A stretch of DNA of 64,000 nucleotides from Octopus vulgaris (Eukaryota). Location: assembly GCA_951406725.2 (NCBI GenBank), contig OX597817.1, positions 45,074,001 to 45,138,000 on the forward strand. The letters run 5' to 3'. Below, one piece after another: positions 4,136 to 64,000 of the stretch; position 1 is the stretch's first letter, and every line of letters starts with the position of its first letter. The position numbers were made by a program, and so were the translations under genes. The notes beneath the pieces are model-generated. The model made no database searches, was not told the origin of the DNA, and was given only the letters and a program-made list of their open reading frames with translations.

Positions 4136-4244
4136 CATTAATATATATAATATATAATAATATACATATATAATAATATAATATATATAATCTCTCTCTT
4201 TCTCTCTCTCTCTCTGTATATATATATAAATAAATATATATTAT

Positions 4245-4469
4245 ATCTTTATTGCCCGCAAGGGGTTAAACATAGAGGAGACAAACAAAGACAGACAAAG
4301 GGATTAAGTCGATTACATCGACTCCAGTGCGTAACTGGTACTTAATTTATCGACCCCGAAAGGATGAAAGGCAAAGTCGACCTCGGCGGAATTTGAACTC
4401 GGAACGTAACGACAAGCGAAATACGGCTACGCATATCGCCCGGCGTGCTAACGTTTCTGCCAGCTCGCC
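4245..4469 (-). mobile_element. tRNA-derived SINE, family A (Nin-domain-like)
   Basis: Reverse complement matches 56515-56747, including tttcatcctttcggggtcgataaattaagtaccag. Confidence 0.85.
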
Positions 4470-11891: not shown

Positions 11892-12102
11892 TATTTCTTT
11901 ACTACCCACAAGGGGCTAAACATAGAGTGGACAAACAAGAACAGACAAACGGGTTAAGTCGATTACATCGACATCAGTGCGTAACTGGTACTTAATTTAT
12001 CGACCCCGAAAGGATGAAAGGCAAAGTTGACCTCGACGGAATTTGAACTCAGAACGTAACGGCAGACGAAATACGGCGTGCTAACGATTCTTCCAGCTCG
12101 CC
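11892..12102 (-). mobile_element. SINE family A with 13-bp TSD
   Basis: TSD gttaagtaatacc at 11879-11891 and 12103-12115. Confidence 0.9.
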
Positions 12103-16429: not shown

Positions 16430-17225
16430 ATATAATATCTACACATATATATTTATATATATATATATATATACCCATATCTACACATATATATTTGTTG
16501 ATATATATATAAATATACTTATATCTACACATATATTTGTGTATATAGATATACTAATGTTGTAAGAATATCACCATATATGAGTAAGCCTATTCCCGTT
16601 TTACATAAACTTTTTACAATTTTTTCCTTCTTTCTGTTATTCCGTTTTTATTGATTATGTGGACTATAACGTTATTGCAAGAATCAAACATAGTCATTGA
16701 CTTTCCAGTTCTGATATTTTTTTTATTCTTGTATAAAGTACCTCATTCTATGAATACAAGATTTTTTTTCTTAATTTAATGCTTTTATATATTTTTGAAA
16801 TTTGTGAACAAACCATTTCAGATATTTACTAGAAGAACACAACACGCTATACGGAAATCATTGGTGACAGATTTTTTCTAAACAAAATGTTCTCTTGGAA
16901 ATTTGCCACGTAAACATGAATTCAATATGCTGCTCTAGTAACACAAATATAAATCTCAGATATATCAGAAAGTGTAATTTCCTCAAAAGAACATATTTTA
17001 GAAGTTTATATAGCATTTTTTGAAGAAATTCCTATATAGTAAGCTTCACACCATACATAAAATATTTTAGCGTAAATTATTTCCATATATGTAGTTTACA
17101 ATTTAACGTCACGTTTAGTCTGCCACGATAAATAACTATAGATATCGTATGTTTAATATATTATACTTGAAACTTATATTTATATTTAAAAAAGATGTGG
17201 AACACGAGTTGTGATATATAAAAAA

Positions 17226-17567
17226 AGGAAATGAAGAAAATGCTGACAAAATAATTTAAGTAAGGGAGAGTGTATTTAATTAGGTGAAAGTTTGTTTTAC
17301 CGGTTGCGCATTTGTTATGCTTATCAAAAGATATTTTTTAAGAGAGATAGAGTTCCTTTCTGATAGATTTTTTTTTCTCTTTTCTGAAAAAAATCTATCA
17401 GAGAAAAACATCTATAAGAGAAAAAAATCTATCAGAAAGGAACTCTATCTCTCTTAAAAAATATCTTTTGATAAGCATAACAAATGCGCAACCGGTAAAA
17501 AGAACTTTCACCTAATTAAATTCACTCTCCCTTACTTAAAATTATTTTGTCAGCATTTTCTACATTT

Positions 17568-17570
<3 letters not shown>
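17226..17570. repeat. Inverted repeat (~155-bp arms) with an HHR-variant motif in each arm
   Basis: Arms ~17226-17381 and 17416-17570 with a few mismatches. The right arm has TTGATAA-gcat-aacaa-atgc-GCAA-ccgg-TA (17468-17497). Confidence 0.9.
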
Positions 17571-17611
<41 letters not shown>

Positions 17612-19782: not shown

Positions 19783-19848
<66 letters not shown>

Positions 19849-19914
19849 GGTCCCGGGTTGATTCGGGGTTAACCACAGTAAATAAGGTACTCAATACATA
19901 GCAGAGTAAAATTA

Positions 19915-20046
19915 ATTTATTATATAGAAGGAGCTTCTACAGGACTAGAACTGTTTCATTCAAGAGAAATCATCAGGAAGCTTCCTGATGATTTCTCTTG
20001 AATGAAACAGTTCTAGTCCTGTAGAAGCTCCTTCTATATAATAAAT
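19915..20046. repeat. Perfect 132-bp palindrome (no spacer) containing an HHR core in each arm
   Basis: Centre ggaag|cttcc at 19980/19981. The right arm has CTGATGA-tttctcttgaat-GAAA-cag-TT. Confidence 0.92.
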
Positions 20047-20099
20047 ATATATATTATATATATATATATATATGTGTGTGTATATATATATAAATATAT

Positions 20100-21308
20100 T
20101 GTTACGGTTGGCTAAGTGCATTTCGGGTTTAATTAGTGTAGTGTTTCTGGTGACCCACATCGTGGATATGGTTCCAGTATGTCTGGTGAAAATGTGACAG
20201 TCTTTTGTCTAATGGAGGACTAATGGGTTTTGGAATGACCTGTGACCTCGTGCGGTTGAGAAGAGGGTCAGGAGAATGTGAAAGAAAAGGGACAGATTAA
20301 GGGCTGAGAGCAAATAGAGATAGAGTATAAGCAGTAAGGGACGGATGGAGAGGCTAAGAGTCTGGCAGGCGATAGCGATAGAGTAAGAGCAGAAGGCAAA
20401 TAGAAAGGATAAGCAGTAAGGGACAGATAGAGAGGCTAAGGGATTGAGGCGATATAGATAGAGTAAGTAATCAGAGAGCAGTTAGAAAGGGTAGGAGCGA
20501 TATAGACAGAGGGAGATGAGGGAGTGGAAGTCAGGACAAGGAAGTGAGGTTCTGGGCAGTCGTTGAGCGGTCGTCGAGGAACATAGACGGATCTTGGAGT
20601 CGCTGGCTGGTCCTCGAAGAAGACAGTCGGATCCTGGAAGTCAGAGCGAGTAGATGGAATCTTAGAGGCGTTGGAATCTTAGGAGCAAGTTGGATGCGAG
20701 AAAGCTTGGCGGCACAGAAGGGAATTAGCAGTATTCAGAGGAATTAGCAGTATTGAGAGGAATGGGACACTGGCAGATTCAATTAGGAATTGAGGTATGT
20801 GTTTGTGCATTGATATGTGTCACGGTGTATTGAACAGTGAAAAGAACAGTCAAGGACTCTGTCGATGTGGTCGATAAAGGACATTGTGAATTGAAGAGTA
20901 AAGGACTTGTTGATTGTGATGTTTAGGAAGAGACTTTAAAAGAACTGTTGTCTTGGGACGTGTACTCTTGGATTGTTACATGATGTTGTATTATGCTTTG
21001 AGTTGTACTCTTGAAATGCTGTTGTATTATGTATTGAGTAGTTACGTGCATGCTTTGATGTATCTTGATGTTGTAACAATTGTAATTGTCGTATAAACTG
21101 TTGTTTGAATATAAGCCAGTGTTGCCATTTGTTGCCTTGCCTCTTTGGGTTGTATCTCGGGTTGTGCCTCTGTATCTCTGTGCTGCTGGGGTTGTGGTAG
21201 TTGTTGTATCTCTCTCCTCTCTCCTCCTCTTTGGGTTCCGTGGCGGAACTTGTGTGAGCCGTTCGGGACGAGCGACGACGGTGGGCGATTCCAGTCCGTT
21301 CCGTAACA
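20100..21308 (+). repeat. 5' LTR (1209 bp)
   Basis: Begins tgttacgg and ends ccgtaaca. Matches 23303-24504. Confidence 0.95.
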
Positions 21309-21310
21309 AC

Positions 21311-21328
21311 TGGTGTCAGAAGTGGGAT
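21311..21328 (+). promoter_or_regulatory. Primer-binding site, tRNA-Leu(CAA)-type
   Basis: TGGTGTCAGAAGTGGGAT, 2 nt after the LTR. Complementary to the tRNA-Leu 3' end ATCCCACTTCTGACACCA. Confidence 0.88.
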
Positions 21329-21366
21329 TGTCCTGATTGCTGCGTTTCGATCGGTTCTTTTTCGCT

Positions 21367-23295
21367 ATGGATTTGTCTGGCTGTCAGACCGGAGACGAGG
21401 GGATTTCGCTTGCCCTGATTGTGGAGATGTTAGGGGGCCAGATGGCGCAGACGGATGCGTTCATGGAAAGGATGGACGAGAGGCGACAGGGCCTGTGGGC
21501 AGATCAGCGGGAGCTTGAGGTTGCGGATGGGTCAGCTTTGAATGATCGGTGTTGGGCCGAGGATAGCGACGGTCCTGTGGACAGAGATTGCCCGTCGAAC
21601 GAAGCATCGAGGGAAACAGATAGTGAAGGAAGTGTTGCCGAAATCTGTGATGCTGGACCGGCTGTGTTTGCGGAACCTGGGCTGGTTGCCGAAATTTGTG
21701 ACGCTGTACCCAAGAATTCTTGTGATTTGGAACCCGTAGAGGGTGAAGTAACCAAAAGGCCTGTGGAAGGTGTTATGGCTGATGCTGTTGTTCCGTGTCT
21801 GGAGCCCTTGGCATCTCGACCCCTGTCTCTCGGAGCTCAGGACAAAGAGCTGGCGAGGTCTGGGGCGAATGTCGCCGAGTCCGAGGTTCCGGCTCTGTGT
21901 GTGATGGTCGCGGCAGGTGCTATGCCGTGTGCGGGTCCTTTGGTGTCTGGACCCCTGTCTCTTGGGGCCCAGAAGGACTGTATGGTTCCCACTGTGGAGA
22001 GGCCACAGGCGTGGATGGACTGGCGGCCGAGCGTGCGTGTTGTGAGGCCTGCGGTACGGAAGCTGGTGAGGAAAAGGACCAGGCCCGTTGACGAGGCGAG
22101 ACGGCTGCGAACGGTGGTGGGTCCACCGAGTCCAGGAAGACTGCTTCAGCGTTGGGTGAGCTTTGTGGTTGATGGTTGCTTGGGGCCGGTGGAGCCCGAC
22201 AGGCAGTGCCTAGTGAAAGCTCGATTGAGGGTCGGGTGGACCCTAGTGGAAGCAGAAGCTGGTGGAGCGCTAGCTGGGTCGGCCGATCTTTTGGAAGTGG
22301 CACAGGCGATTTGCAGAAGGCAAATTGAGGAATCGTGCCAGATGGCGAACCAGTGGTGGGGCCAGCTCTGCCGATACGGCAACGCAGTTGAAGGAGGTGG
22401 TGGCCCACGGATGCAGTTGAGGAAGCAGTCCGCAAGGAGTCGCTGGTGCTTTCTTGGCACTTGGGGGAGCTCTGTGTTCGATGGTTGCGTGGGGCTGGTG
22501 GAGCCCGACATGCAGTGCGGAGTAAGAGCTCAGTTGAGGGTCGGCTGGACCCTGGTGGAGGCAGAGTCTGACAGAGCGCTGGTTGGGTCGGCCGAGTTAT
22601 TGAAGGCTGCGCAGGCGATTTGCAGAGGGCAAATCGTGGAACTGCGCCGGACGGTAAACCAGCGGCGGGGTCAGTTCTGCCGGTGCAGAGATGAAGTTAA
22701 GGGAGTTCGTGGTCCGCTGATGCAGTTGCGGAAGAGGCAACTGTTGGTGAAAAGCGCAGGACGTTGGTCGCGAGGGTTGTTGGATGCTGGTCGCACGGAC
22801 CGGGCAGAACGTTTCGTCGACCAAGGCGGTTGTCGCTTGAGGAGGCAGCGAGGCCGGAAAAAGGTCTCAGTACAGCAGCGCAAGAGGAGATATCGGCGAC
22901 AGGTAACAGTGAAAGGACAGAATGGTCCCTGGTCGTCAGCGATAATTGCGCGGAATGGGGATGGTACAGCAAGGTGCTACGTGGGCTATAGAGCCCTGAG
23001 GAAGGTGGCCACTGTGAAGGATTGGCCGGACCCTGCCTGTGGAAGGGATTTGAGGAACTTCCTCGGACGGTGCGCCTATTGTGGGCGGCTAGTGGGAAGC
23101 CTGGCGGCGTTGGCGGAGGTGTTACCCAAGCCGCAGAGGGAAGGTGCCAACCTGTGGCTGGTGCTGAAGTGGTGGCCGTGGGAGGGAGACCCCCGGAGGA
23201 GAAACCACCCAAGGGGACCCCCAGCCCCTGGAGAGTCTGAGGCTCGGAGGTGCGAGTTTTGTTATGCTTTGTCGGGTCGACAGAAGCTTAGGTAG
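21367..23295 (+). CDS. Single uninterrupted ORF (642 aa from ATG 21367): collapsed gag/protease/RT-derived protein lacking the RT catalytic core
   Basis: Pol remnants DAGRTDRAERFVDQG, GPWSSAIIARNGDGTARCYVGYRAL, fused directly to KVATVKDWPDP..DLRNFLGRCAYCGRLV. No YxDD, RNase H or integrase core. Internal in-frame repeats. Confidence 0.75.
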   Translation: MDLSGCQTGDEGISLALIVEMLGGQMAQTDAFMERMDERRQGLWADQRELEVADGSALNDRCWAEDSDGPVDRDCPSNEASRETDSEGSVAEICDAGPAVFAEPGLVAEICDAVPKNSCDLEPVEGEVTKRPVEGVMADAVVPCLEPLASRPLSLGAQDKELARSGANVAESEVPALCVMVAAGAMPCAGPLVSGPLSLGAQKDCMVPTVERPQAWMDWRPSVRVVRPAVRKLVRKRTRPVDEARRLRTVVGPPSPGRLLQRWVSFVVDGCLGPVEPDRQCLVKARLRVGWTLVEAEAGGALAGSADLLEVAQAICRRQIEESCQMANQWWGQLCRYGNAVEGGGGPRMQLRKQSARSRWCFLGTWGSSVFDGCVGLVEPDMQCGVRAQLRVGWTLVEAESDRALVGSAELLKAAQAICRGQIVELRRTVNQRRGQFCRCRDEVKGVRGPLMQLRKRQLLVKSAGRWSRGLLDAGRTDRAERFVDQGGCRLRRQRGRKKVSVQQRKRRYRRQVTVKGQNGPWSSAIIARNGDGTARCYVGYRALRKVATVKDWPDPACGRDLRNFLGRCAYCGRLVGSLAALAEVLPKPQREGANLWLVLKWWPWEGDPRRRNHPRGPPAPGESEARRCEFCYALSGRQKLR

Positions 23296-23302
23296 GGGGT
23301 AG
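23290..23302 (+). promoter_or_regulatory. Polypurine tract
   Basis: aggtagggggtag immediately 5' of the 3' LTR; overlaps the ORF stop. Confidence 0.8.
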
Positions 23303-24504
23303 TGTTACGGTTGGCTAAGTGCATTTCGGGTTTAATTGGTGTAGTGTTTCTGGTGACCCACATCGTGGATATGGTTCCAGTATGTCTGGTGAAAATGTGA
23401 CAGTCTTTTGTCTAATGGAGGACTAATGGGTTTTGGAATGACCTGTGACCTCGTGCGGTTGAGAAGAGGGTCAGGAGAATGTGAAAGAAAAGGGACAGAT
23501 TAAGGGCTGAGAGCAAATAGAGATAGAGTATACGCAGTAAGGGACGGATGGAGAGGCTAAGAGTCTGGCAGGCGATAGTGATAGAGTAAGAGCAGAAGGC
23601 AAATAGAAAGGATAAGCAGTAAGGGACAGATAGAGAGGCTAAGGGATTGAGGCGATATAGATAGAGTAAGGAATCAGAGAGCAGTTAGAAAGGGTAGGAG
23701 CGATATAGACAGAGGGAGATGAGGGAGTGGAAGTCAGGACAAGGAAGTGAGGTTCTGGGCAGTCGTTGAGCGGTCGTCGAGGAACACAGACGGATCTTGG
23801 AGTCGCTGGCTGGTCCTCGAAGAAGACAGTCGGATCCTGGAAGTCAGAGCGAGTAGATGGAATCTTAGAGGCGTTGGAATCTTAGGAGCAAGTTGGATGC
23901 GAGAAAGCTTGGCGGCACAGAAGGGAATTAGCAGTATTCAGAGGAATTAGCAGTATTGAGAGGAATGGGACACTGGCAGATTCAATTAGGAATTGAGGTA
24001 TGTGTTTGTGCATTGATATGTGTCACGGTGTATTGAACAGTGAAAAGAACAGTCAAGGACTCTGTCGATGTGGTCGATAAAGGACATTGTGAATTGAAGA
24101 GTAAAGGACTTGTTGATTGTGATGTTTAGGAAGAGACTTTAAAAGAACTGTTGTCTTGGGACGTGTACTCTTGGATTGTTACATGATGTTGTATTATGCT
24201 TTGAGTTGTACTCTTGAAATGCTGTTGTATTATGTATTGAGTAGTTACGTGCATGCTTTGATGTATCTTGATGTTGTAACAATTGTAATTGTCGTATAAA
24301 CTGTTGTTTGAATATAAGCCAGTGTTGCCATTTGTTGCCTTGCCTCTTTGGGTTGTATCTCGGGTTGTGCCTCTGTATCTCTGTGCTGCTGGGGTTGTGG
24401 TAGTTGTTGTATCTCTCTCCTCTCTCCTCCTCTTTGGGTTCCGTGGCGAACTGGTGGGCCGTTCGGGGCGAGCGACGACGGGCGATCCAGTCCGTTCCGT
24501 AACA
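23303..24504 (+). repeat. 3' LTR (1202 bp)
   Basis: About 5 substitutions versus the 5' LTR over the first ~1140 bp, plus a cluster of small differences in the last ~60 bp. Confidence 0.95.
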
Positions 24505-24524
24505 ATATATATATATATATATAT

Positions 24525-24773
24525 GATAAATGTGCCCTTTTAAAGCCTAGCCAGGCTCATGGGCAGGTTTCTCGGTTTCACTGACGTATGCGTTCCCCAG
24601 CTGGACGGGACGCCATTCCATCGCAGCGTTACTCATCTTTGCCAGGTGAGTTGACTGGAGTACGTGAAATGAAGTGTTTTGCTCAAGAACACAACGCATC
24701 GCCCGGTCCAGGAATCGAAGCCACAATCTTATGAACATGATGCTGACACCCTAACCACTAAGCTACGCGCCTC
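24525..24773 (-). mobile_element. SINE family B
   Basis: Reverse complement of the 42410-42650 type; head ggcgcgtagcttagtggttaggg. Confidence 0.85.
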
Positions 24774-24819
24774 CACACACACACACACACACACATACAC
24801 ACACATGTATATGTATATA

Positions 24820-27924: not shown

Positions 27925-28407
27925 GGTGTGGCTGTGTGGTAAGAATCTTTCTTCCCAACCACATTATGTTACGGAGGCGAGCTGATAGAAAGTTTAGCAT
28001 GTCGGGCGAAATACTTAGCGGTATTTGGTCTGTCGATCAAATCGACAAAATTTCGCCAAGGTGACGTTTCCTTTCATCCTTTCGGGATCGATAAATTAAG
28101 TACCAGTTGCGTACTGGGGTCGATCTAATCGCTTGGTACCCTGCCCCAAAATTTTGTGCCTTGTGCCTAGAGTGGAAAAGAATATTTTAAGGCCGCGAGC
28201 TGTCAGAATCGTTAACACACCGGGCGAAATGCATAGCGTTATTTCATCTGTCTTTATGTTCTGTCTTCAAACTGTGCTGGGGTTGACTTTATATTTCATC
28301 CTTTCGAGATCGATAAATTAAGTACCAGTTGTGTACTAGGGTCGATCTAATCGCCTGGCACCCTGCCCTATAATTTTGTAATTGTGCCTAGCGCAGAAAA
28401 GAATATT
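27925..28407 (+). mobile_element. SINE cluster: family C head followed by two tandem family-A SINEs
   Basis: gtggctgtgtggtaag head, then two copies of ttcatcctttcg.gatcgataaattaagtaccagttg (~28073 and ~28296), followed by (TAA)n. Confidence 0.8.
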
Positions 28408-29168: not shown

Positions 29169-29326
29169 CAACTTGAGATAGGGTTGTAAATGCAACCCTC
29201 CATGGGATAACATACATCCAATATACTGCTACCCAAAGTTAATACATAAATGTTAATGATTGCGATGCAATCAATTCATCTACTGTATTATATGTGCAAA
29301 GGTAAAATGATTTACCACAAATTATT

Positions 29327-29962
29327 AATACAAGATAAGAAAATGGAGAAATGCATCTAAATCAAATATCAATTACCAGATTATACTCAATCACATACTT
29401 TATTAAACCACCACATAAGAGACCCTAGGGTTAAATATAAAAAGCAGAACAAATCAGTGTACATAAAGGAATGTACATAAAAAAGTGTACATAAAAGAGT
29501 AATGTTGTATAATAAGTAGAATATATATAAAAGAGAATATAAATATAAGTAAATATAAATATAAGTATAGATTACATGTTACAGCTGTTTTGGCCATGTA
29601 GATAAGTATGTCTCATTTTACCAATATTAGCCTTTATCTATATATTGACCTACCATAAATGGCTAATATTGGTAAAATGAGGCATACTTATCTACATGGC
29701 CGAAACAGCTGTAAGATGTAATCTATACTTATATTAATATTTACTTATATTTATATTCTCTTTTATATATATTCTCCTTATTATACAACATTACTCTTTT
29801 ATGTACACTTTTTTATGTACATTCCTTTACGTACACTGATTTGTTCTGCTTTTTATATTTAATCCTAGAGTCTCTTATGTGGTGGTTTAATAAAGTATGT
29901 GATTGAGTATTATCTGGCAATTGACATTTGATGTAGATGTATTTCTCCATTTTCTTATCTTG

Positions 29963-29966
<4 letters not shown>
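29327..29966. repeat. Inverted repeat with ~310-bp arms and 17-bp spacer, in a (TA)n-flanked Penelope-like insert
   Basis: Arms 29327-29637 and 29655-29966 with scattered mismatches. Contains an HHR 3' half, GAAACAGCTGTA (29702-29713). Confidence 0.92.
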
Positions 29967-30023
<57 letters not shown>

Positions 30024-34525: not shown

Positions 34526-34989
34526 AGGAAGTAAAAAAAGAACGAGAAAATAATGTTGGAATGGGATATTAGTAGGATATTAAATGGTCAAGTGCCCTAA
34601 AGGTGACTTGTTGTGGATGGTAATAATGATTGAATTCTTGAGATATCCCTTTTGAATGTATTGTTTATAATAATTGCGTAGGTGTTATTCTAGACTGCAG
34701 TTGTGGTAAAGTAAGGAAAGAGGTTGTAGAGATGAAGAAGAAGACGAAGAAGGAGACAGAGAATAAGAGAGAAAATAATAAGATAAAGCAGGATGGTAGG
34801 ATAGTAGTAGGATGTTAAATGGTCAAGTGACCTTAAAGTGACTCGTTGTTGATTACAGCAGTGATTGGGACTGTTTTTAATGAATTCTTGGGTATCTCTT
34901 ATGAATGTATCATTTTTAATATTTGATTGTGTGATATTCTAAGGTCGTGGTGGAAATGTCATTTGTTGTAGATACATTTAGAAGGGGTC

Positions 34990-35530
34990 TCTACATAGAA
35001 AATAACTGGAAGAGACACCTGGATGACTGTTTCATTATTTGGCATGAAAGTATAGAGAGACTTAAAAAATGTCAATCACTTATGGAATATAGCCATCAAC
35101 AACTTCCCTTCCTCGACATCCTCATTAAGAAATCTAACAACGTAAAAGAAACAGATATATACTATAAGCCCACGGACATCAAGGAATATGTAATGTTCAT
35201 CTTATGCCACCCCAGACACACCATATTGAATATCCCCTTCAACCTAGCAAAAAGGATATGTACTATATATTTCTTTACTCTCATCAGCAGGAACTACCCA
35301 CCTTCACTAATTGACCTATGCTCTCAACCTGCCCTACAACTCAACATCCACGAACTCACACATCCCAAATTAAAGAAGGATTTACAACCAAAAGCCCTAC
35401 CATACATCTCCATTCACAACCCTCTTAACAATGAAGCCTTCGACACCATCCCTCAAAACATTCCCCTGCTAAAAAAGGACCACAGAATGAACTTAATCCT
35501 CTAAACACACACCATCATAAAAAGCAAGAG
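34990..35530 (+). pseudogene. Penelope-like element reverse transcriptase fragment
   Basis: WKRHLDDCFIIW, LPFLDILI, TDIYYKPTD and CHPRH..NIPFNLAKRI are PLE RT and thumb motifs. Internal deletions; YxDD changed to HLDD. Confidence 0.88.
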
Positions 35531-36052: not shown

Positions 36053-36094
36053 AGACATATATATATATATTAATCATTGTTGAAATTATTGTAA

Positions 36095-36312
36095 AGCGGC
36101 TCTGCTGGTAGAATCGTTAACACGGCATGCGAAATCATTAACGGTCTTACGCCTGCCGCTATATTCAGATTTGAAATTATGTCGAGGTCGACATTGCATT
36201 TCATCGTTTCGTAATCGATAAATTAAGTATTAGTAAAACAGTAAGGTCGATGTAATCGACTGTATCCCTCCCCTCAAAATTTCAGTTCTTGTACCTATAG
36301 TAGAAAGGATTA
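36095..36312 (+). mobile_element. SINE family A, old copy
   Basis: gaggtcgacattgcatttcatcgtttcgtaatcgataaattaagta. Confidence 0.7.
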
Positions 36313-36995
36313 TCGTAATTATTCTTATCGAATGAAGACATTTCACGACCTATTGATGCTTGAGTACTACATGTGCTCAACTCAGTTAATAAAAAAAAAG
36401 TGATCTACATACTGATATCTCTTCCCGTTCTTCCCTCTTTCTCTTGCACTACCTTTACTTCTCTCGGTCTCTCGCTCGATAACTTTTTATCTTTCTAACT
36501 ATTTACACAGACATTTTGAGCGTATATGTCTACGTGTTTTTGGTTTTGTGATTCTGTGCATTTGCCTATGGGTATATTTTAGAGTTTTCATACATAGATA
36601 TACCGCAACATGCCTTCTGTGCCCGTGCAAACGTCTGAAATTGCATAAGAGCATAAAGGATTTCTTGCGGAAATAATATATGATTTGCCTTTGGCTATGA
36701 TAACACTCTCAATATTGCGCTAACTTTCTCAAGACATCATATAAAGCTATATGAATTAATTTATCACTTCAATTCAAACTCATCAGGAGGTTGTCTGAAG
36801 TCAAGTCATAGAATTCTATAAAAAAAATTCAATTCGATTTTTATATACTTCAGATTTATCAAGTAAGATTCATTTTCAACTTCTTGCATGAAAGGTGATA
36901 CTGCTAGACATAATCTGGATATGTACATACATATATATACATTTCTATCTATCTATCAATCTATCTATCTGTGTATCTCTCTCTCTCTCTCTCTG

Positions 36996-38103: not shown

Positions 38104-38122
38104 CTGCATATGTGTGTGTGTG

Positions 38123-38198
<76 letters not shown>

Positions 38199-38215
38199 TA
38201 TTATATATCTATCTT

Positions 38216-38308
<93 letters not shown>

Positions 38309-39783
38309 GCATACATACACATTTTCGTATATGTATTCTACAATTTGCAAACCTAATGGATGATGAGTCCCATATATTATAGCGGCTAATCCAAAATGTA
38401 GAATGCCGTTCCACCAATTTATACGATACGCTTTTGAAATTTGTAAATATTAGCGCACTAAACCTAAGATAATGAAGAAATTCAGAAATAAAAATGCGTT
38501 TACCCTGCAGTAAACTTTGGAGTCACCATTCTTCCAGCTCGTCATATGCGAGTCTCTGCGTGCTTGTACATGCTGCAAGAGTGTTTTAATCTCTATTTTG
38601 AATATACCTCACTAAGGAGAAATAACGGCTTCTGGAATAGCTTTAATCCAATTGTTCTGAGAGGGAGATGTTAGTCGGTACTATCAACTGCTGATCTCTT
38701 ACTATACCTTATCAATCCTAGATGGATGATAGTCTATGTTAATGTTGGCGGGATATGTACTTGAAAAGGGCCTAAAACTAATGTCCCAAGTTGACGTAAC
38801 GTGCTTATTTCTATCAGCCGTTGCTTTAAAGACAAAAACCATTCCAATCTAGCTTATCTATAATTTCCCAAATTCCAATACGCTATTAGTATAAGAGGTA
38901 TCCACCGCGACAGCTGCTTTTGGATTGCTGACGCACTTGAATTTTTTTTTCAATTAATTGCTTGGATAATCTAAATTGACTGAATATTTCCAAGAGATTT
39001 GATTACATATTTGACGCTCTATCATACGCATTGGAAGGCATGCTTAATTTAATCTTCACTCCCCACTTCAGTAAATTGTAATTTATTTTGTTACATAATA
39101 ATCCATCTTGTTATTGATTGCGTGAAATCCTCTCGTGTTTTTAAGATGATGCAGCGGTATTGCAAGTATGATTCTTAGATTCTCTTCCATTAGTATTTGC
39201 ATAAAAAAAAATTATCTTTCTTTTAATGTAATATGATGTGTAAAGCCTATTATTATTTTTTATTCTATTCTAATACTATTAGTTACACATATCGCTGTCT
39301 TCAATTGCAGAATTTTATTAGTTTAGAATTTTAAACATTTCCACCTAGATCAGATTTTTATATGACGGAATCGAATGGCTATATTTTGTACCAGATGTTT
39401 TGTTGAAGCCTCAAGTAAATCAATAGGGTGCCTATATTGCAGTACGGTGAAATTAAACTTCCCTTAGATTTTTATTACAAAATACATGCAATCGTACATG
39501 GTATTTTTCCTTTTTATTTATACATAAACAATTCGTTTCTATAAAAGCAAATTTCGTTCCTTTTTTCTAGTTAAATATTGTCAATTTAATGTATCATGAA
39601 TTTCAAATTTAATTACAGATATTACATTATTAGTAAATACAAAATTATGTGCATTCATATCGTAGAATACTAAGAGATATTTGTAACTATCAGAAGCATA
39701 GCTAGTTACAACCTATGATGGCGATAATCAGTGAGTATAAAATCTCTTCACGAGCTTTTGTATAATTCTGTGGGAAACGTTAT

Positions 39784-43687: not shown

Positions 43688-43856
43688 GGTGTAGGAGTGT
43701 CTGTGTGGTAAGTAGGTTCCGGGTTCACTCCCACTGGGTGGCACCTTGGGCAAGTCTCTTCTACTATAGCCTCGGGCCGACCAAAGCCTTGTAAGAGGAC
43801 TTGGTAGACGGAAACTGGAAAGAAATCCGTCGTATATATGTATATGTATATGTATT

Positions 43857-43890
<34 letters not shown>

Positions 43891-44160
43891 GGTGTGGGTG
43901 TGTGCGTGTGTGTGTGTGCGTGTGTGTGTGTATGTGTGTGTGTGTTTGTGTGTCTGTGTTTGTCCCCCCAACATCGCTTGACAACCGATGCTGGTGTATT
44001 TACGCCCTTGTAACTTAGCGGTTCGGCAAAAGAGACGGTTGAATAAGTACTAAGCTTACAAAGAAGAAGAACTGGGGTCGATTTACTCGAGTAAAGGCGG
44101 TGCTCCAGCATGAGCACAGTCCTATGACTGAAACAAGTAAAAGAGTAAAAGAGTAAAGAG
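43688..44160 (+). mobile_element. SINE family C (internal TA/TG microsatellite, gtaaaaga tail)
   Basis: ccttgggcaagt CORE-like motif; multi-copy in the window. Confidence 0.88.
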
Positions 44161-46029: not shown

Positions 46030-46427
46030 AACGGCTGTGTGGTATGTAGCCTGCTTATAAACCACATGGTCCAGGGTTCAATCCCATTGCGTGGAACCTT
46101 AGGCATGAGTCTTCTACTATAACCTCGGGCCGATCAAAGCCTTGAGTGGATTTGGTAGACGGAAACTGAAAGAAGCCCGTAGTATATATATATATACATA
46201 CATACATATATGTATCTGTGCGTGTGTTTTGTATGTCTGTGGTTGTCCCACCAAAATCACTTGACATCCGATACGAGTGTGTTTACGGCTCTATAACTTA
46301 GTGGTTTAGCAAAACAGAATGATAGAATAAGTACTAGGCTTACAAAGAATAAATCCTGGGACCGATTTGCTTGACTAAAAGTGGTACTCTAGCATGACCA
46401 CAGTCAAATGACTGAAACAGGTAAAAG
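46030..46427 (+). mobile_element. SINE family C
   Basis: Collinear with 43688-44160. Confidence 0.85.
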
Positions 46428-47344
46428 CGTATTACATATAAGGTAACTAAATAACCTCTATGTTTTACGTTCTAGAATCTTCGTTTCTTATATGTCACAA
46501 ACTGCATGTTTGTAAAAAATGATCATACCTTATTCATTATACCTCATAAAGCCACAATATTAGAGACCCACTCCAAATTTTTTTTTGACCTGGTTGAGAT
46601 TAAATAATATAAATGTTTTCCTATTGTCTTTACGCGAGGCAAAAGACTATTCGTGAAACGGAGTCGTTTTTACTGTACAGCAACCACAGCGGTTAGCATT
46701 CATTTTAATCCATTTCGATTTGAGCATCATGAAACGAAGTGACCTGCTCACGAACGAAACGTCCCCCTCATCCTGTATTCAGCTTCATGGCATTGCTCTC
46801 GTGCGTCCGTGAGAAGAATATTAATTATAAAACGCTCTTGGGCCACTATTCCACAATAATTATTTCACTAAGTTTATACCACCAGTAGTTTTCAAACTTT
46901 TACAATTATTTTATTAATCGTATCTTTCTCTTCGTTCTTTTATTGATTTCTATAAATATATTTAGATATTAGTTTTTATGTAATCACCTACCGATTTTTC
47001 CCTTAATTACTGTTTTTATTTATCTTATATATATTGTCGTGTTTATTTATTTTGATAATTTCGTATTTCTATTGTCAAGATTTCTTCTTATTTTTCTAAA
47101 ATTCTTAACTTTTTAAAACGTCTATAATGACATAATGACTACATTTATACTTTATCCATTTAGTACAAAATTCCGCCGATTGCTAAACAAACGTTAAATT
47201 ATTGCTTAGCAATTATTCTCCAATTTAACTTGTTTGTTTCTTAATTTCTGTGATTTTCTTATTTGTCTGAGTATTTGTTTAAGATACACCCCCTGATTGC
47301 ACTCATGTACATACAATACACAGACAGAAATATACGTAAATGCG

Positions 47345-47575
47345 TGTGTATATGTGTGTGCGTTTATGTATGTGTACAGGACGTCACCAGGTGTGCAAAC
47401 AACATGAAATTGGTTGACAAACGAGTTGAGTACATAAACAACGAGAGAAACTATGGAAAACAAGACAAGATACATACATATATATGTATATGTATTATAT
47501 ATATGTACGTATGCGTGTATATTTATATGTATGTAACTGTGCTTATATGTATATGCATATATATCTATATCTATC

Positions 47576-47623
<48 letters not shown>

Positions 47624-47854
47624 GATAGATATAGATATATATGCATATACATATAAGCACAGTTACATACATATAAATATACACGCATACGTACATATAT
47701 ATAATACATATACATATATATGTATGTATCTTGTCTTGTTTTCCATAGTTTCTCTCGTTGTTTATGTACTCAACTCGTTTGTCAACCAATTTCATGTTGT
47801 TTGCACACCTGGTGACGTCCTGTACACATACATAAACGCACACACATATACACA
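47345..47854. repeat. Perfect 510-bp palindrome centred on (TA)18
   Basis: The arms are exact reverse complements; the ORF track gives the same peptide on both strands (47263+ and 47571-). Confidence 0.92.
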
Positions 47855-48689: not shown

Positions 48690-49099
48690 TAGGTACAGGA
48701 GTGGATGTGTGGTAAGCATAGGCGCTGGAGTGGCTGTGTGGTAAGTAGCTTGCTTACCAACCACATGATTCTGGGTCCAGTCCCACTGCGTGGCACCTTG
48801 TGCAAGTAGCACCTCGGGCCGACCAAAGCTTTGTGACTGGATTTTGTAGACGGAAACTGAAATAATCCCTTCGTATATATGTATATGTATAGGTATGTGT
48901 GTTTGTGTGTCTATGCTTGTCCCTCCCAACATCGCTTGACAACCGATGCTGGTGTGTTTACGTCCCCGTAACTTAGTGGTTCGGCCAAAGAAACTGATAG
49001 AAGTACTAGGCTTAGAAAGAATACGTCCTGGGGTTGAGTTGCTCGACTATAAAGTGCTCCAGCATGGCCGCAGTCAAATGACTGAAATAAGTAAAAGAG
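48690..49099 (+). mobile_element. SINE family C with duplicated 5' head
   Basis: ggagtggatgtgtggtaag followed by ggagtggctgtgtggtaag, then the full body. Confidence 0.85.
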
Positions 49100-50288
49100 T
49101 TATATTATTTTATGTTTTCTATCATGATCTGATGTACGTCAACTTGGATGAACTTGTATCGGTGCAAACAGGAATTCAATTGCACATAATTCATCAGTCA
49201 TCTACTATACGATAACACTGTATAGTATATACATATATATAAAGTAAACGACATTTCCCTACATTCAAAATAAGCCCCGTGAGAAAACAGAGGAATATAG
49301 GTAATGGAACGTGTGTATATTTACATATATGTCTGTATTTGTTTCTATGTATGTATGCTTTTATGTATGTATGTATGTATGTATGTATGCATGTATGTAT
49401 GTATGTATGCATATATGTATGTATGTATGCGTGTATGCATGAACATGTGTATGTGTGTGTGTGTGTGTGTTACGGAAGATATGTAAACACAGCAATTGAA
49501 ACAAACACAAAGAACTTGCTAATGGTTGCCTATGATGAAAAGTAAAACCGTATGTCCAAAACATCAAACCTCTTCGACAAAGCACCAAGAAAGAGCAAAG
49601 GTACGCCCCTGAGGCATATACAAAATTAGCAGTAACTGATTTTCAATAATTTCTGTAGAATTTCATAGTGACCTAGTTGTAGAAGTACTGCCAAACTTTC
49701 AGAACTTCAAGGAATAAATTAAACACATGTATAACGTTAGTATGTGTTTTCTTAAAAGAAAACATTATCTCTAACACAATGTAATTACTAAAGAAAACCC
49801 TTTGTAGAAAACGCTGGAAGAAATCCTAGTTAGTTTTTCTGCTTTAAGTTTCTCTCATAGAGAACCGTTAAAGTAAGTCTGCAATGTATAGCGACGGGTT
49901 AATTTTTTTGCTTTCGGCATTGGAATAGTTTTTAGGTAGAGTTAATGTTATTTAGAGAAATATATTCAATCATGATAATTTTTCACGAAATCAGAATGAA
50001 TTATAGGAAATATGGTTTCTAGGTTTTATGTATCTACATTTTCGTTGGTGACTGTTGCATTCTCTACCATATTAACAGAATTGTTATTACTGTTTTATTG
50101 ATTCTGGAGAATATTTTATATTTATTGATTTTGCAATAAATTTTAGTTACTTCGACGTTAACATTATTTACGAATATAATTTAACCAATATATATTTATA
50201 TGTATGTATGTATATGCAAGCATGCATATATACATACCTACATTCACACATACATATATAAGTGACTGTCTGTCTGTCTCTATGTATC

Positions 50289-52446: not shown

Positions 52447-52917
52447 GCTCTTTACTCTCTTTTACTCTTTTAGCTGTTTCAGTCATTTGACCGCAGCCAT
52501 GCTGGAGCACCGCTTTTAGTCGAGCAAATCGACCCCCAGGACTTATTATTTGTAAGCCTAGTACTTATTCTATCGGTCTCCTTTTGCCGAGCTGCTAAAT
52601 TACGGGGACGTAAACACACCAGAATCGGTTGTCAAGCGATGTTGGGGTGGGCAAACAAAGACACACAAACACACAAACACACATACACACACACACACAC
52701 ACACACGCACGCACACACACACATATATATATATATATATGCATATACATATATACGACGGGTTTTTTCCAGTTTCCGTGAACCAAATCCACTTACAAGT
52801 CTTTGGTTGGCCCGAGGCTATAGTAGAAGACAATTGCCCAAGGTGCCATGCAGTGGGACTGAACCCGGAACCATGTGGTTCTTAAGCAAGCTACTTACCA
52901 CACAGCCACTCCGGCGC
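52447..52917 (-). mobile_element. SINE family C, full length
   Basis: Reverse complement of the 43688 and 48720 copies. Confidence 0.9.
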
Positions 52918-53609
52918 GTATACGTATGTTTATAAATATTTCATAACCACAACTTTAGATTTAGCAAAAATAGGGCAACACAACGAGCAAAATAAATCTT
53001 GTCATCCAGGGAAAACGCTGTGAGCTACAACATATCTTTCTAACGTTTTCATATTGTTTACACATTATCAAAATGTTCGAAAAATGTGTTTTTTTCCACG
53101 ACCGACAAAAAAGGTATTCCTCCAAATCTCATAAACTTTTGAAGACACGCTCGGGAGATTCCAATTTTGGGAATATCACAATTCTGTTCCCTAGTCTCTT
53201 GTTTGTTAGTGAAACTAACCACGATTATGTAACAAGAATTCCTCTAGATCCGGGCGCGGTTGGCTTGGATGCAGAAATCCATTTAATAATTTATGAATAT
53301 TTTCTCTTAATGATATAATTTTTCCACAAACTCCCTGGTGTTTTCTTGCAAACATTTCTGTGATAAGCTCCAACAACATTCTTCTTTCAAGTTTCTTAAA
53401 GGAAGTTAAGTTTAATGCATTTCATGTTAAATTTATATTTTTGGAAAAATATAATTTTGATCATATATCAGGAAACTAAAATCTTTATGCTTATAACTAA
53501 CAGACACTGCACAAGACTTACTGTATGAATTAGAAATGTGATTTTGTATACACACACATACACAGAAACACACATTCACACATATATATATATATATATG
53601 TATATATCG

Positions 53610-56514: not shown

Positions 56515-56747
56515 AAGGCGGCGTGCTGGCAGAACCGTTAGTACGCCGGGCGAAATGCGTAGCCGTATTTCGTCCGCCGCTACGTTCTGAGTTCAAATTC
56601 CGCCGAGGTCGACTTTGCCTTTTATCCTTTCGGGGTCGATAAATTAAGTACCAGTTACGCACTGGGGTCAATGTAATCGACTTAATCCGTTTGTCTGTCC
56701 TTGTTTGTCCCGTCTGTGTTTAGCCCCTTGTGGGTAGTAAAGAAATA
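56515..56747 (+). mobile_element. SINE family A, young, 17-bp TSD
   Basis: TSD tatatctacgtattggg at 56498-56514 and 56748-56764. Confidence 0.92.
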
Positions 56748-57809
56748 TATATCTACGTATTGGGTTAGCCTACTTCATCATCATCTGAGGGCTGCCACAC
56801 AACACATACATACATTCATACACACATGAATGTATATATGTACGTATGTAGGTATGTATTTACATAAAGATCAAAATGCTTCTGCACATCTCTATCGATT
56901 TCTTTCCTGTTTACCACCTTAAGCACATTAGACACCACTTGCCTACATATAATTATTATAGAAAATGCAATGACTAGGACACGGTAATTGAAACAAACCC
57001 ATGCTCCAAATCATTCAGGAAAGTACCGCTTGTCCTACAGAAAGTGTCACCAACCTATTTCCTATTTGCAATGTTTTGTCTTCTCTAGAAACAGTAGATG
57101 TTTTAATAGTTATAGATTGTGTTTCAGGAAACACATTAGTGAGAAATACGTTAGAATGTTTCTTTCTCAGCTTTTTTTCCAGCTATAATCTTATTATATT
57201 GCTCTAGGGAAAAGTTTAATTATGAACTTGACAATATAATTGCATTCTACTATAGTCTTTCAAAATATTTAATCTAATTGATATATTTGGATTGACAAAA
57301 CCGAGTAAACAGCCCTAGGATATTGAAAATAATCGAACGATTCCCGGGAAATTTTGGCGATAATTCATCTAAATAAGACATAAATGTAAATACGGAAAAT
57401 GTCAACACCAGTCGCTATCATCATCACCTTACTTATTCCATATATTCTCCACTTCAATATCTAAATCATTATTATTATCATTATTATTTTTAATATTATT
57501 GTTGTTGTAAGTGTTGCTATTGCTGCCGTTGTTGTTTTAGTTCTTGTTCTTGTTCTTTTGCTTCATTTTCTCGATGTTTCTTAATAACCTGGTCACTTTT
57601 CAGCTTCTAGCAGGTTACGGCTGTTTAATAGCCCCAGGTATCAAGTAGCCTCTACCTGTTTTTTTCATTTTTTCATTCCAGTACTTTTAGTCAATCTAAT
57701 CATCGCCTGCCCTGCGTAATATTTCTGCTCTATATGCAAACTCATTACTGTACCTTTCAACCTACATACTTCGCTTTTTGCTTGGCCTTCTCCTGCTGCT
57801 GCTCCTTCT

Positions 57810-62159: not shown

Positions 62160-62559
62160 GTTTACTCTTTTATTTGTTTCAGTCATATGACTGTGGCCAT
62201 GCTGGAGCACTGCCTTTTAGTCGAGCAAATCGACCCCGGAACATATTTTTTGTAAACCTAGTACTTATTCTATCAGTTTCTTTTACCGAACCGCTAAGTT
62301 ACGGTGACATAAACACACCAGCATCGGTTGTCAAGCGATGTTGGGGGGTGGGGGACAAGCACAGACACACAAACACACACACATATAAATACATATATAC
62401 GACGGGCTTCTTTCAGTTTCCGTCTACCAAATCCACTCACAAGGCTCTGGTTGGACCGAGGCTATAGTACAAGACACTTGCCCAAGGTGTCACGCAGTGG
62501 GACTGAACCCGGGACTATGTGGTTGGTAAGCAATATACTTACCGCACAGCCACTCCTAC
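62160..62559 (-). mobile_element. SINE family C
   Basis: Collinear with 52447-52917. Confidence 0.88.
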
Positions 62560-63242: not shown

Positions 63243-63313
<71 letters not shown>

Positions 63314-63320
<7 letters not shown>

Positions 63321-63405
63321 AAATATAAGAGAGTTAACGTTAAATAGGTTAACTCTAGCACTAGAGTTAACCTATTTAACGTTAACTCTCTTATATTTAC
63401 GGATA
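63314..63405. repeat. Perfect hairpin, 45-bp arms and 2-bp spacer, next to (TA)n
   Basis: Arms 63314-63358 and 63361-63405. Confidence 0.92.
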
Positions 63406-64000
63406 AATATGTATTGTCTCCCTGGTTTATTGTGCTAGGTCGCTTGGTGTTAACATAAGGGTATTATTAAATTAATATCTAATTTTTCACCCTCATTTTT
63501 GAATTTATGAATTTGATACGCTGCAGTAAATATTACATGCGGTATTCGCTTCCACTAAGTCTTAGCATATGCTTTTGGCGGGGAACTTGTAACTACAACC
63601 CTGAATGTAATCGATCAGACCGCATGGGTAATCGTCGCCCGTGTAGGTCTGATAAATTGCACCGATGACAAATGTTGCTGATGATCTATAGAGATATATG
63701 TGAGTATAATGTGCATATTATATTGATAAAGAAACAATTGTACAACATTAATCCACTTTTTAGTTGTATTTCACTTTCCTTACGTTGAGAGTAGTGCTAT
63801 TTCTATGTGGAGGTATCGTCAGCGATTATACCGGAGGAGCTATTTCTAGCACTAGAGTTAACCTATTTAACGTTAACTCTCTTATATATATACGGATAAA
63901 TATGTATTGTCTCCCTGGTTTATTGTGCTAGGTCGCTTGGTGTTAAAATAAGGGTATTATTAAATTAATATCTAATTTTTCACCCTCATTTTTGAATTTA
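63354..64000 (+). mobile_element. ~491-bp tandem unit carrying an HHR (Penelope pLTR or retrozyme-like); runs off the window
   Basis: The sequence from tctagcactagag at 63354 recurs at 63845 and continues near-identically to the window end. Confidence 0.75.
63671..63749 (+). ncRNA. Type-I hammerhead ribozyme with intact core
   Basis: aatgttg-CTGATGA(63678-63684)-long stem II-GAAA(63731-63734)-caattg-TA-caacatt. Perfect 7-bp stem I, palindromic stem III, GUA cleavage site. Confidence 0.85.

Follow-up and report, generated by a model that had tools for sequence, protein, structure and literature searches.

Why should an LTR retrotransposon that has lost its enzyme cores keep one long reading frame open across nearly its whole interior? 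The question is raised by an element of 4,405 bp (20100-24504) seated within a TA microsatellite of the 64,000-nucleotide stretch of Octopus vulgaris DNA analysed here (the window). Its features, in window coordinates, are the following.

20094..20099, unstranded: left flank, (AT)3, a possible target site duplication (TSD) that looks no different from the microsatellite itself
20100..21308, + strand: 5' LTR, 1,209 bp, TG...CA, with 82-, 17- and 19-nt tandem repeats inside
21311..21328, + strand: primer-binding site (PBS), 18 nt, complement ending in CCA
21367..23295, + strand: single ORF, 642 codons from ATG
21409..21525, + strand: N-terminal long helix, residues 25-63, the sole confidently predicted part (pLDDT 81-95)
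21550..21594, + strand: probable remnant of a CCHC zinc knuckle, lacking its second Cys and its His
21595..22002, + strand: acidic segment of low complexity that contains an in-frame 132-nt duplication (21793-21840 / 21925-21972)
22093..22425, + strand: protease-RT linker domain, relic 1
22462..22734, + strand: protease-RT linker domain, relic 2 (309-nt tandem duplication)
22735..22998, + strand: N-terminus of RT and first part of the fingers
22999..23124, + strand: RT thumb, fused in frame, with ~150 codons including YxDD gone
23185..23295, + strand: tail in a copy-specific frame, one base fewer near 23185 than in most copies
23290..23302, + strand: polypurine tract (PPT)
23303..24504, + strand: 3' LTR, 1,202 bp
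24505..24510, unstranded: right flank, (AT)3

Direct LTRs with TG...CA ends, a PBS, which we take to be a tRNA-Leu complement, and a PPT are all in place, as in Ty3/Gypsy elements. The two LTRs differ by 7 substitutions and 7 gap columns, every gap falling within the last 65 bp, and because this divergence is just 0.6% the copy must be young; the sequence-only reading was right that the divergence is low, but its 5 substitutions over ~1,140 bp covered only the first part and become 7 over 1,209/1,202 bp. It had also called PBS, PPT and TSD intact, which stands for the first two. Where a TSD of 4-6 bp was sought, both flanks show (AT)n alone, of at most 6 bases, and since a TA microsatellite yields (AT)n on its own, the TSD is uninformative. 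An Rfam search of 19800-24800 gave 0 matches and a tRNA scan of the whole window found 0 tRNAs; the remaining TGTTACGG/CCGTAACA sites inside the window are unrelated to the element.

As first described, the interior is nearly all one frame, from an ATG at 21367, 39 nt past the PBS, to a stop at 23293-23295 within the PPT. The frame covers ~95% of the interior without a break, the remaining two forward frames holding 20 and 31 stops. The stop within the PPT, however, is no feature of the element: it is private to this copy, which is itself frameshifted near 23185. The extra base at this point is carried by most of the contig depth (74-100%) in four of four runs, and an O. sinensis copy (XP_036354368.1) continues past it in the other frame, ending ~45 nt before the LTR.

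What this frame descends from can be read from its 3' half. ORF residues 483-562 align with residues 745-829 of a full polyprotein (E 7e-7) and residues 556-596 with 977-1017 of the same protein (E 3e-5), and the ~150 polyprotein residues skipped between the two RT matches include YIDD at 915. This two-part match bears out the earlier proposal that the RT start is joined in frame to the thumb, with palm and YxDD gone; Ty3 RT (4ol8) aligns with both stretches, weakly (E 1.6). The absence of RNase H and of the integrase core was likewise read correctly, a Pfam search of the ORF returning 0 families at E<=10, and CCHC, DTG and YxDD motifs are all missing from it. As none of the four enzymes (protease, RT, RNase H, integrase) is complete, the element is non-autonomous. 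On the gag side, no capsid or other gag match was found for residues 11-255 among 78 non-octopus relatives or in Pfam, a search that a very remote fold might escape, and the acidic stretch has no match beyond octopus. The residue loss at 21550..21594 likely marks a zinc-knuckle remnant, as judged from spacing (the E value of 8.5 alone is not significant), and one or both lost residues are still present in more diverged octopus copies. By these alignments we take the ORF to be a relic of gag/pol, its gag side read from the eroded knuckle alone. The closest matches to the pol relics are elements of PR-RT-RH-IN order, an order carried by P0003 and P0019, and the element as a whole is, as far as its sequence tells, a Ty3/Gypsy derivative whose RT remainder is too small to assign a clade.

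The linker between protease and RT has a predicted identity of its own in these relatives. The modelled linker of an intact crustacean relative, P0032 (pLDDT 83.8), is predicted to have a dUTPase-like fold: Foldseek gives E 2e-4 against a Drosophila dUTPase (VIA Z 8.9, rmsd 3.6-4.4, 92-103 aligned), and the top 22 rows all belong to dUTPases, to dCTP deaminases or to dUTPase-related proteins of viruses. No Pfam dUTPase match at E<=1 was found for P0032, P0010, P0004 or P0102, so that a predicted dUTPase-like fold between protease and RT of invertebrate Gypsy relatives appears to have been overlooked by Pfam. The linker relics in the octopus ORF are mostly below pLDDT 60 and gave no fold match.

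The RT deletion is not peculiar to this copy. Four contig pieces from four runs bridge the junction, three of them ~80% identical and one 98% identical, and XP_036354368.1 has it as well; no joint or loose end falls on the junction among those listed (383 loose ends lie beyond these). Because it is common to copies ~20% diverged, the deletion must be old, and bridging pieces and O. sinensis copy together indicate amplification in the deleted form. The element is thus one copy of a multi-copy non-autonomous Ty3/Gypsy family of Octopus, dispersed over at least 13 chromosome-scale contigs, and the sequence-only reading of a young, non-autonomous, multi-copy element is supported by LTR divergence, lost enzymes and dispersed copies alike. 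Its subfamilies are 49-94% identical in protein (P0010, 60%). Public protein sets hold at least 26 related partial gene models, and the 19 looked up are all named Octopus; none of the 26 is full-length and five end at a stop or frameshift within homologous sequence. Single-contig depth reaches ~20-45 times that of rare diverged pieces, which hints at a copy number in the tens, depth being a poor measure of it. One run that might be RNA was discarded as expression evidence, since its coverage (30 of 30 bins, depth 2-13) is what low-coverage repeat DNA would give. We met no earlier description of the family in the literature; Repbase and Dfam lay outside the search and may catalogue it.

No octopus helper appeared among the 20 of 68 non-family matches looked up (7 named), and the autonomous invertebrate Ty3/Gypsy matches, at 33-44% identity, are too distant for that role. 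The same identity range made us set aside horizontal transfer from crustacean prey, an idea prompted by the nearest named linkers being decapod. In some O. vulgaris models the first ~150-190 ORF codons run on into domains of host proteins, a RING and a Death domain in P0002 and choline transporter-like 1 in P0093, as would be expected if the host kept the ORF as a domesticated gene or exon. We regard such domestication as very remote, considering the youth of this copy, the spread of the family, the many different downstream partners, the lack of purifying selection, and the fact that the models are predictions. Gene models of the family, some of them fused to host genes, are therefore a source of either annotation error or real chimeric transcripts.

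Could the frame have stayed open by itself? Let us suppose that descent from pol, a G-rich and stop-poor strand and constraints at the RNA level left the ORF open, with no selection on translation at all. Amino-acid change is near neutral (see below), one antisense frame has just 6 stops, and several annotated copies are broken, all as such passivity would have it. Against it, when the bases of the interior were shuffled 2,000 times, the longest ORF had a median of 161 and a maximum of 371 aa, compared with the actual 652. When neutral evolution of the ORF was simulated with its own base frequencies until residue identity had fallen to 82% or 78%, roughly what a single lineage would contribute to the 60% identity with P0010, the frame was still stop-free in 11 and 2 of 3,000 runs, respectively. 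Compared with relatives, at least five changes of length keep the sequence on either side in register: the 309-nt and 132-nt duplications, the loss of ~15 codons from relic 2, a small deletion where RT begins and the ~150-codon palm loss. The 309-nt duplication, overlooked in the earlier reading, consists of copies 78% identical and free of indels and stops, and across the two internal repeats 60 substitutions brought 0 stops (an outcome of ~5% of neutral trials) and 0 indels.

The distribution of indels points the same way. Of the 12 best-supported among 70 indels, a single one lies in the ORF and the other 11 in the LTR, and among the contig pieces listed (32 of 3,138, some being one piece found in two runs) gaps occur in 3 of 23 ORF pieces, which carry 520 substitutions, versus 7 of 9 LTR pieces, which carry 83. 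At low depth, four ORF joints have a known sequence between their ends; three of them are net in frame and one is out of frame. Directional A-to-G drift of the ADAR type, considered as a common cause of G richness and missing stops, was dropped, since residue changes of the A>G and of the G>A type are roughly equal against the closest relatives (15 versus 18 for P0010, 7 versus 7 for P0050); A>G type changes are in excess against three other relatives, and neighbour context does not discriminate. The frame has been kept well beyond chance expectation under neutrality, and we consider purely passive survival quite improbable.

The residues inside this frame tell a different story from the frame itself. 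From 91 codon pairs of the duplicated unit, in which redundancy may relax selection, omega is 0.58-0.61, with a 95% range of 0.35-1.1, a value that does not differ from 1 (p 0.12-0.14) and exceeds 0.2 (p<=0.0013). Among 33 differences from other copies, the best-supported of 331 listed places, which may contain post-insertion changes or assembly errors, 11 are synonymous where 9.6 are expected. The amino acids thus appear to evolve nearly neutrally. The sequence-only reading had set a dN/dS near 1 and broken copies against a maintained ORF; omega is indeed indistinguishable from 1 and the five truncated models are broken, yet the replicating lineage has kept its frame. The point value below 1 still allows some protein constraint, and one may ask whether the protein itself acts, in cis or in trans, with its helix tethering a helper's Gag and the Arg-rich residues ~450-550 binding its own RNA, so that the product steers the RNA to helper particles or competes with the helper. 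Besides omega, such a protein could account for the confidently modelled helix, for the first part of that helix being unchanged in subfamilies 64-70% identical overall, and for a net charge of +11 to +12 per 50 residues at residues 451-550. The Arg richness, however, is explained by base composition, G making up 39% of the strand at every codon position. RNA packaging signals usually sit just past the PBS, and since the conserved 5' stretch directly follows the PBS, the N-terminal constraint may be on the RNA. The AlphaFold model of the whole product has pLDDT 44.6; a fold search with this poor model gave no match at E<=0.001, and ESM Atlas none usable for residues 260-475. Taken with the missing capsid match and the eroded knuckle, we find a working protein of either kind rather unlikely, even considering that the mouse IAP 1-delta-1 fusion protein is reported as cis-acting in two reviews (PMC6466679, PMC7411935).

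We therefore prefer, as probable in our cautious estimate, that the long gag/pol-derived frame is kept since end-to-end translation favours the RNA in cis, the protein sequence mattering little. The element would be transcribed by Pol II from the 5' LTR, its RNA translated end to end, primed by a host tRNA at the PBS, and packaged and reverse-transcribed by the Gag and Pol of a helper, the element itself encoding no replication enzyme. A premature stop might then make the genomic RNA a target of nonsense-mediated decay, or might take it out of the pool of RNAs under translation, in which helper Gag would find it; Ty1 Gag has been proposed to bind translating RNA (PMC3945221). Master copies bearing stops or frameshifts would leave fewer descendants, whereas duplications and deletions that keep the frame, and the majority of missense changes, would be tolerated. 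Of the two explanations offered at the outset, selection on translation agrees with a kept frame, near-neutral residues and vanished functional motifs, and the gag/pol-mosaic competitor fits poorly; on sequence grounds cis selection for translation is likely the best reading.

Stated more boldly, and held only tentatively, this would be a 'translation-only' ORF in a long-lived animal lineage that has lost capsid, nucleocapsid and every enzyme, with stops and frameshifts selected against over millions of generations as the protein decays and translation serves as the parasite RNA's cis-acting licence to persist and to get into a helper particle. If true, the lineage would provide a natural, evolution-scale test of an effect that in IAP 1-delta-1 is known from experiment alone, and a class of seemingly meaningless long ORFs should be expected in non-autonomous LTR elements. 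Frame maintenance and protein conservation, usually coupled, come apart here, which makes the element a clean case for asking whether LTR-element RNA must be translated for packaging or for escape from decay.

How does this family compare with known systems? In mouse IAP 1-delta-1, gag remains fused in frame to pol and the fusion acts in cis, an effect that the reviews credit to the fusion protein rather than to translation alone (PMC6466679, PMC7411935). Both are internally deleted LTR elements that need Gag and Pol in trans and amplify well. IAP 1-delta-1 is a class II ERV in which a single deletion fuses gag and pol, whereas the octopus element, an invertebrate Ty3/Gypsy by its relatives, has several deletions and duplications and no recognisable capsid; its lineage is long-lived, with residues drifting almost neutrally, and its putative cis effect is suggested, indirectly, by frame conservation.

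The LARD interior is non-coding, so that our element reaches the LARD size and fails on its interior. TR-GAG requires a gag ORF with capsid and nucleocapsid, and the octopus ORF has no Pfam match, no CCHC and no match of that kind among relatives. The LARD threshold is >4 kb (PMC13570524), reached here at 4,405 bp, and TRIM elements are non-coding and under ~1 kb, which excludes an element of this size with a 642-codon ORF. With plant TRIM, LARD, TR-GAG and pol-remnant families it shares kept LTRs, PBS and PPT and lost enzymes, and in the plant elements too the partner is often untraceable and short internal duplications are common (PMC13570524, PMC10886601). It differs from them in being 4.4 kb long with one unbroken ORF along ~95% of its interior, where TRIM and LARD are non-coding and a gag ORF is what TR-GAG retains. 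The starting premise, loss of coding capacity as the usual fate of non-autonomous LTR elements, was too strong: besides IAP 1-delta-1, 43 of 115 non-autonomous sugar-beet families keep coding remnants, described as fragmented and patchy (PMC13570524).

The autonomous Ty3/Gypsy elements of Petrolisthes, Homarus, Branchiostoma, Cordylochernes and Mercenaria have linker, RT N-terminus and thumb in the same order, the aligned stretches being 33-44% identical; they retain the CCHC, protease, RT palm, RNase H and integrase that the octopus element is without. The internal ORF of MaLR is gag-derived and MaLR is ERV-L related, whereas the traceable half of the octopus ORF is pol-derived. MaLR of mammals is likewise a non-autonomous LTR family with a retroelement-derived, heavily eroded interior, in which homology to retroviruses survives only in traces (PMC6466679). 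In LTR retrotransposons of fungi and bdelloids, dUTPase domains lie between PR and RT (PMC2864245, PMC5408684), the same position as the octopus linker, which is duplicated, eroded and not confidently folded.

As the sequence-only reading had it, the interior of the element is one long open frame: from the ATG at 21367 it runs for 642 codons, with 20 and 31 stops in the remaining two forward frames, and the longest ORF in 2,000 shuffles reached at most 371 aa. The element itself is a real feature, with an 18-nt PBS beginning two bases past the 5′ LTR and a PPT abutting the 3′ LTR.

20100-24504, LTR element
20100-21308, 5′ LTR, 1,209 bp
21337 to the stop at 23293-23295, + strand, open frame
23303-24504, 3′ LTR, 1,202 bp

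The LTRs are near-identical, as claimed, but the proposed count of ~5 substitutions over ~1140 bp becomes 7 substitutions (0.58%) plus 7 gap columns over 1,209/1,202 bp, every gap lying inside the last 65 bp. An intact target duplication cannot be upheld: with TA microsatellite on both flanks, the apparent duplication of 6 bases at most carries no weight. A strong splice-donor-like site lies within the LTR at 20793-20801; its counterpart in the 3′ LTR comes after the stop.

Nor does the stop inside the PPT stand as the end of the element's ORF. In each of four runs (one contig each), most depth near 23185 carries one base more than the window (5.28/5.28, 2,545/3,424, 1,826/2,015 and 172/208), and the O. 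sinensis protein XP_036354368.1 continues in another window frame from ~23185 onward. Thus the last 36 codons and the PPT stop are peculiar to the window copy or its assembly; typical copies end the ORF some 45-65 nt short of the LTR. The sense strand of 21367-23185 is 39% G and 20% A, all codon positions alike, and its four-fold sites are 41% G, although the host genome has ~33% GC. A test for A-to-G drift caused by editing gave no support for it.

A Pfam search of the ORF gave no match, and a motif search found no CCHC, DTG or YxDD left in it, in agreement with the reported absence of the enzymatic cores. Compared one by one with 78 non-octopus relatives, the ORF segments gave the following matches, residues 11-255 and the C-terminus having no significant match in this set.

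Residues 253-365, linker between protease and RT, first relic (E 7e-10)
Residues 372-462, linker between protease and RT, second relic (E 8e-10)
Residues 463-554, RT N-terminus (E 1e-12)
Residues 555-600, RT thumb (E 7e-11)

The two RT segments of the ORF align ~150 residues apart on a complete polyprotein, with YIDD inside that gap, confirming that the RT start is joined to the thumb without the palm. Residues 72-86 are probably the remains of a CCHC knuckle: more diverged octopus copies retain its second Cys or its His, and in a crab relative the motif is complete. The ORF protein model (pLDDT 44.6) has a single confident helix, residues 25-63, and a fold search with it found no match.

The linker of a crustacean relative (P0032) has a confident predicted fold (pLDDT 83.8) matching dUTPases (Foldseek E 2e-4; VIA Z 8.9). 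In the protein alignment of relatives (A3), this fold, undetected by Pfam, is predicted for the linkers of invertebrate Gypsy proteins P0032, P0102, P0029, P0050, P0025 and others. A dUTPase at the same position, between protease and RT, is known from fungal and bdelloid elements (PMC2864245, PMC5408684). The domain is described in the literature as rare in retrotransposons. On these models, the invertebrate Gypsy linker may be a widespread pseudo-dUTPase.

The closest proteins to the ORF are Octopus gene models, one O. vulgaris model having 92% identity across 148 residues and XP_036354368.1 89-90% across ORF residues 336-632. Altogether 26 related models aligned at 49-94% identity, 19 of them named: 18 from O. 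vulgaris and one from O. sinensis. The named O. vulgaris models sit on 13 contigs that differ in length, all of chromosome scale. Part of the interior is present in 20 of 24 listed runs (9 studies, 3 organisms), and all 30 bins of LTR plus interior are covered, with many variants, in each of 4 runs examined. By these sequence comparisons the element belongs to a dispersed family whose subfamilies differ in age. The first ~150-190 codons (21367-21920) form the first exon of many O. vulgaris gene models (e.g. P0002, P0093), and among the fused partners are RING plus Death domains and choline transporter-like 1; such models are either errors of annotation or genuine chimeric transcripts driven by the LTR. 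P0009 and P0010 (CAI9717477.1, CAI9717476.1) are adjacent gene models that belong to different subfamilies, and one of them has just one linker unit; they are possibly nested or adjacent copies.

Within this family the frame is kept. Three contig pieces from sequencing runs, ~80% identical to the window, and one 98% identical, span the RT junction gap-free, so the deletion is older than the subfamilies. The units of the 309-nt duplication differ by 60 substitutions with 0 indels and 0 stops (stop-free in ~5% of neutral trials), and the frame is preserved on both sides of a 132-nt duplication, of the loss of ~15 codons from the second repeat, of a small deletion at the RT start and of the palm loss. 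After neutral substitution the ORF was stop-free in 11/3,000 runs at 82% identity and 2/3,000 at 78%, with substitutions only and lineage rates taken as equal. Among the best 12 of 70 indels, 11 fall in the LTR, and gaps occur in 3 of 23 ORF pieces versus 7 of 9 LTR pieces (32 of 3,138 pieces shown, several recurring across runs). Counting against a kept frame, none of the 26 models is full-length, five (P0007, P0010, P0017, P0018, P0106) terminate at a stop or frameshift within homologous sequence, and most of the others switch to unrelated sequence at residue ~135-200, in many cases close to a donor-like site at 21914. Low-depth joints in the ORF whose intervening letters are known number 4, and 1 of them breaks the frame. 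Post-insertion decay accounts for the five broken models, yet they are also compatible with weaker selection; that the ORF is a passive relic we consider improbable.

The protein sequence, on the other hand, is barely kept. The proposed test of ORF conservation has a split outcome: the replicating lineage keeps the frame, the residues change nearly neutrally, and 5 of the 26 models are broken. Of the 60 differences that separate the repeats, 23 are synonymous where 18 would be expected (p 0.09), and maximum-likelihood omega is 0.58-0.61 (range 0.35-1.1); of 33 listed differences that set the window apart from other copies, 11 are synonymous (9.6 expected) and 0 create a stop. Beside this drift, an ORF product acting as a functional tether or competitor seems doubtful, and host domestication very improbable.

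Elements without their own Gag and Pol must borrow them, and the present one would take both from another element. New insertions inherit master-copy changes only, so the persistence of an open frame despite residue drift suggests that translatability of the RNA is under selection in cis, and we lean, if only slightly, toward this putative explanation of the open ORF. Translatability in cis might be favoured by escape from nonsense-mediated decay; alternatively, the RNA might stay in the translating pool, where Gag has been proposed to bind RNA in Ty1 (PMC3945221). The unusual feature is a frame long uncoupled from protein sequence.

Elsewhere in the window, long palindromes lie at 19915-20046, 47345-47854, 29323-29970, 17214-17582, 38115-38321 and 63305-63414, of which the 132- and 510-bp ones are perfect and one is just left of the element; they are possibly Penelope-type ends, or possibly assembly fold-backs. 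A 189-codon frame at 34935-35504, for which Pfam gives only DUF2982 (E 0.005), is similar to the C-terminal region of the RT in Penelope-like elements. Short interspersed repeats form one family at 4231-4469, 11892-12102, 27965-28407, 36093-36322 and 56515-56755, and a second, with a central microsatellite, at 43715-44160, 46033-46431, 48718-49100, 52448-52929 and 62161-62556.

A literature search, with Repbase and Dfam outside its scope, found no account of this octopus family. Mollusc Gypsy clades have been described (PMC6238403); the element keeps too little RT to be assigned to one. Its coding content excludes it from TRIM, LARD and TR-GAG. In plants, non-autonomous families with coding remnants are common, 43 of 115 in beet (PMC13570524). 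Most similar in working, although the octopus element is not a member, is mouse IAP 1-delta-1, in which a 1.9-kb deletion reportedly fuses gag to pol, and the fusion helps the element to retrotranspose in cis (PMC6466679, PMC7411935).
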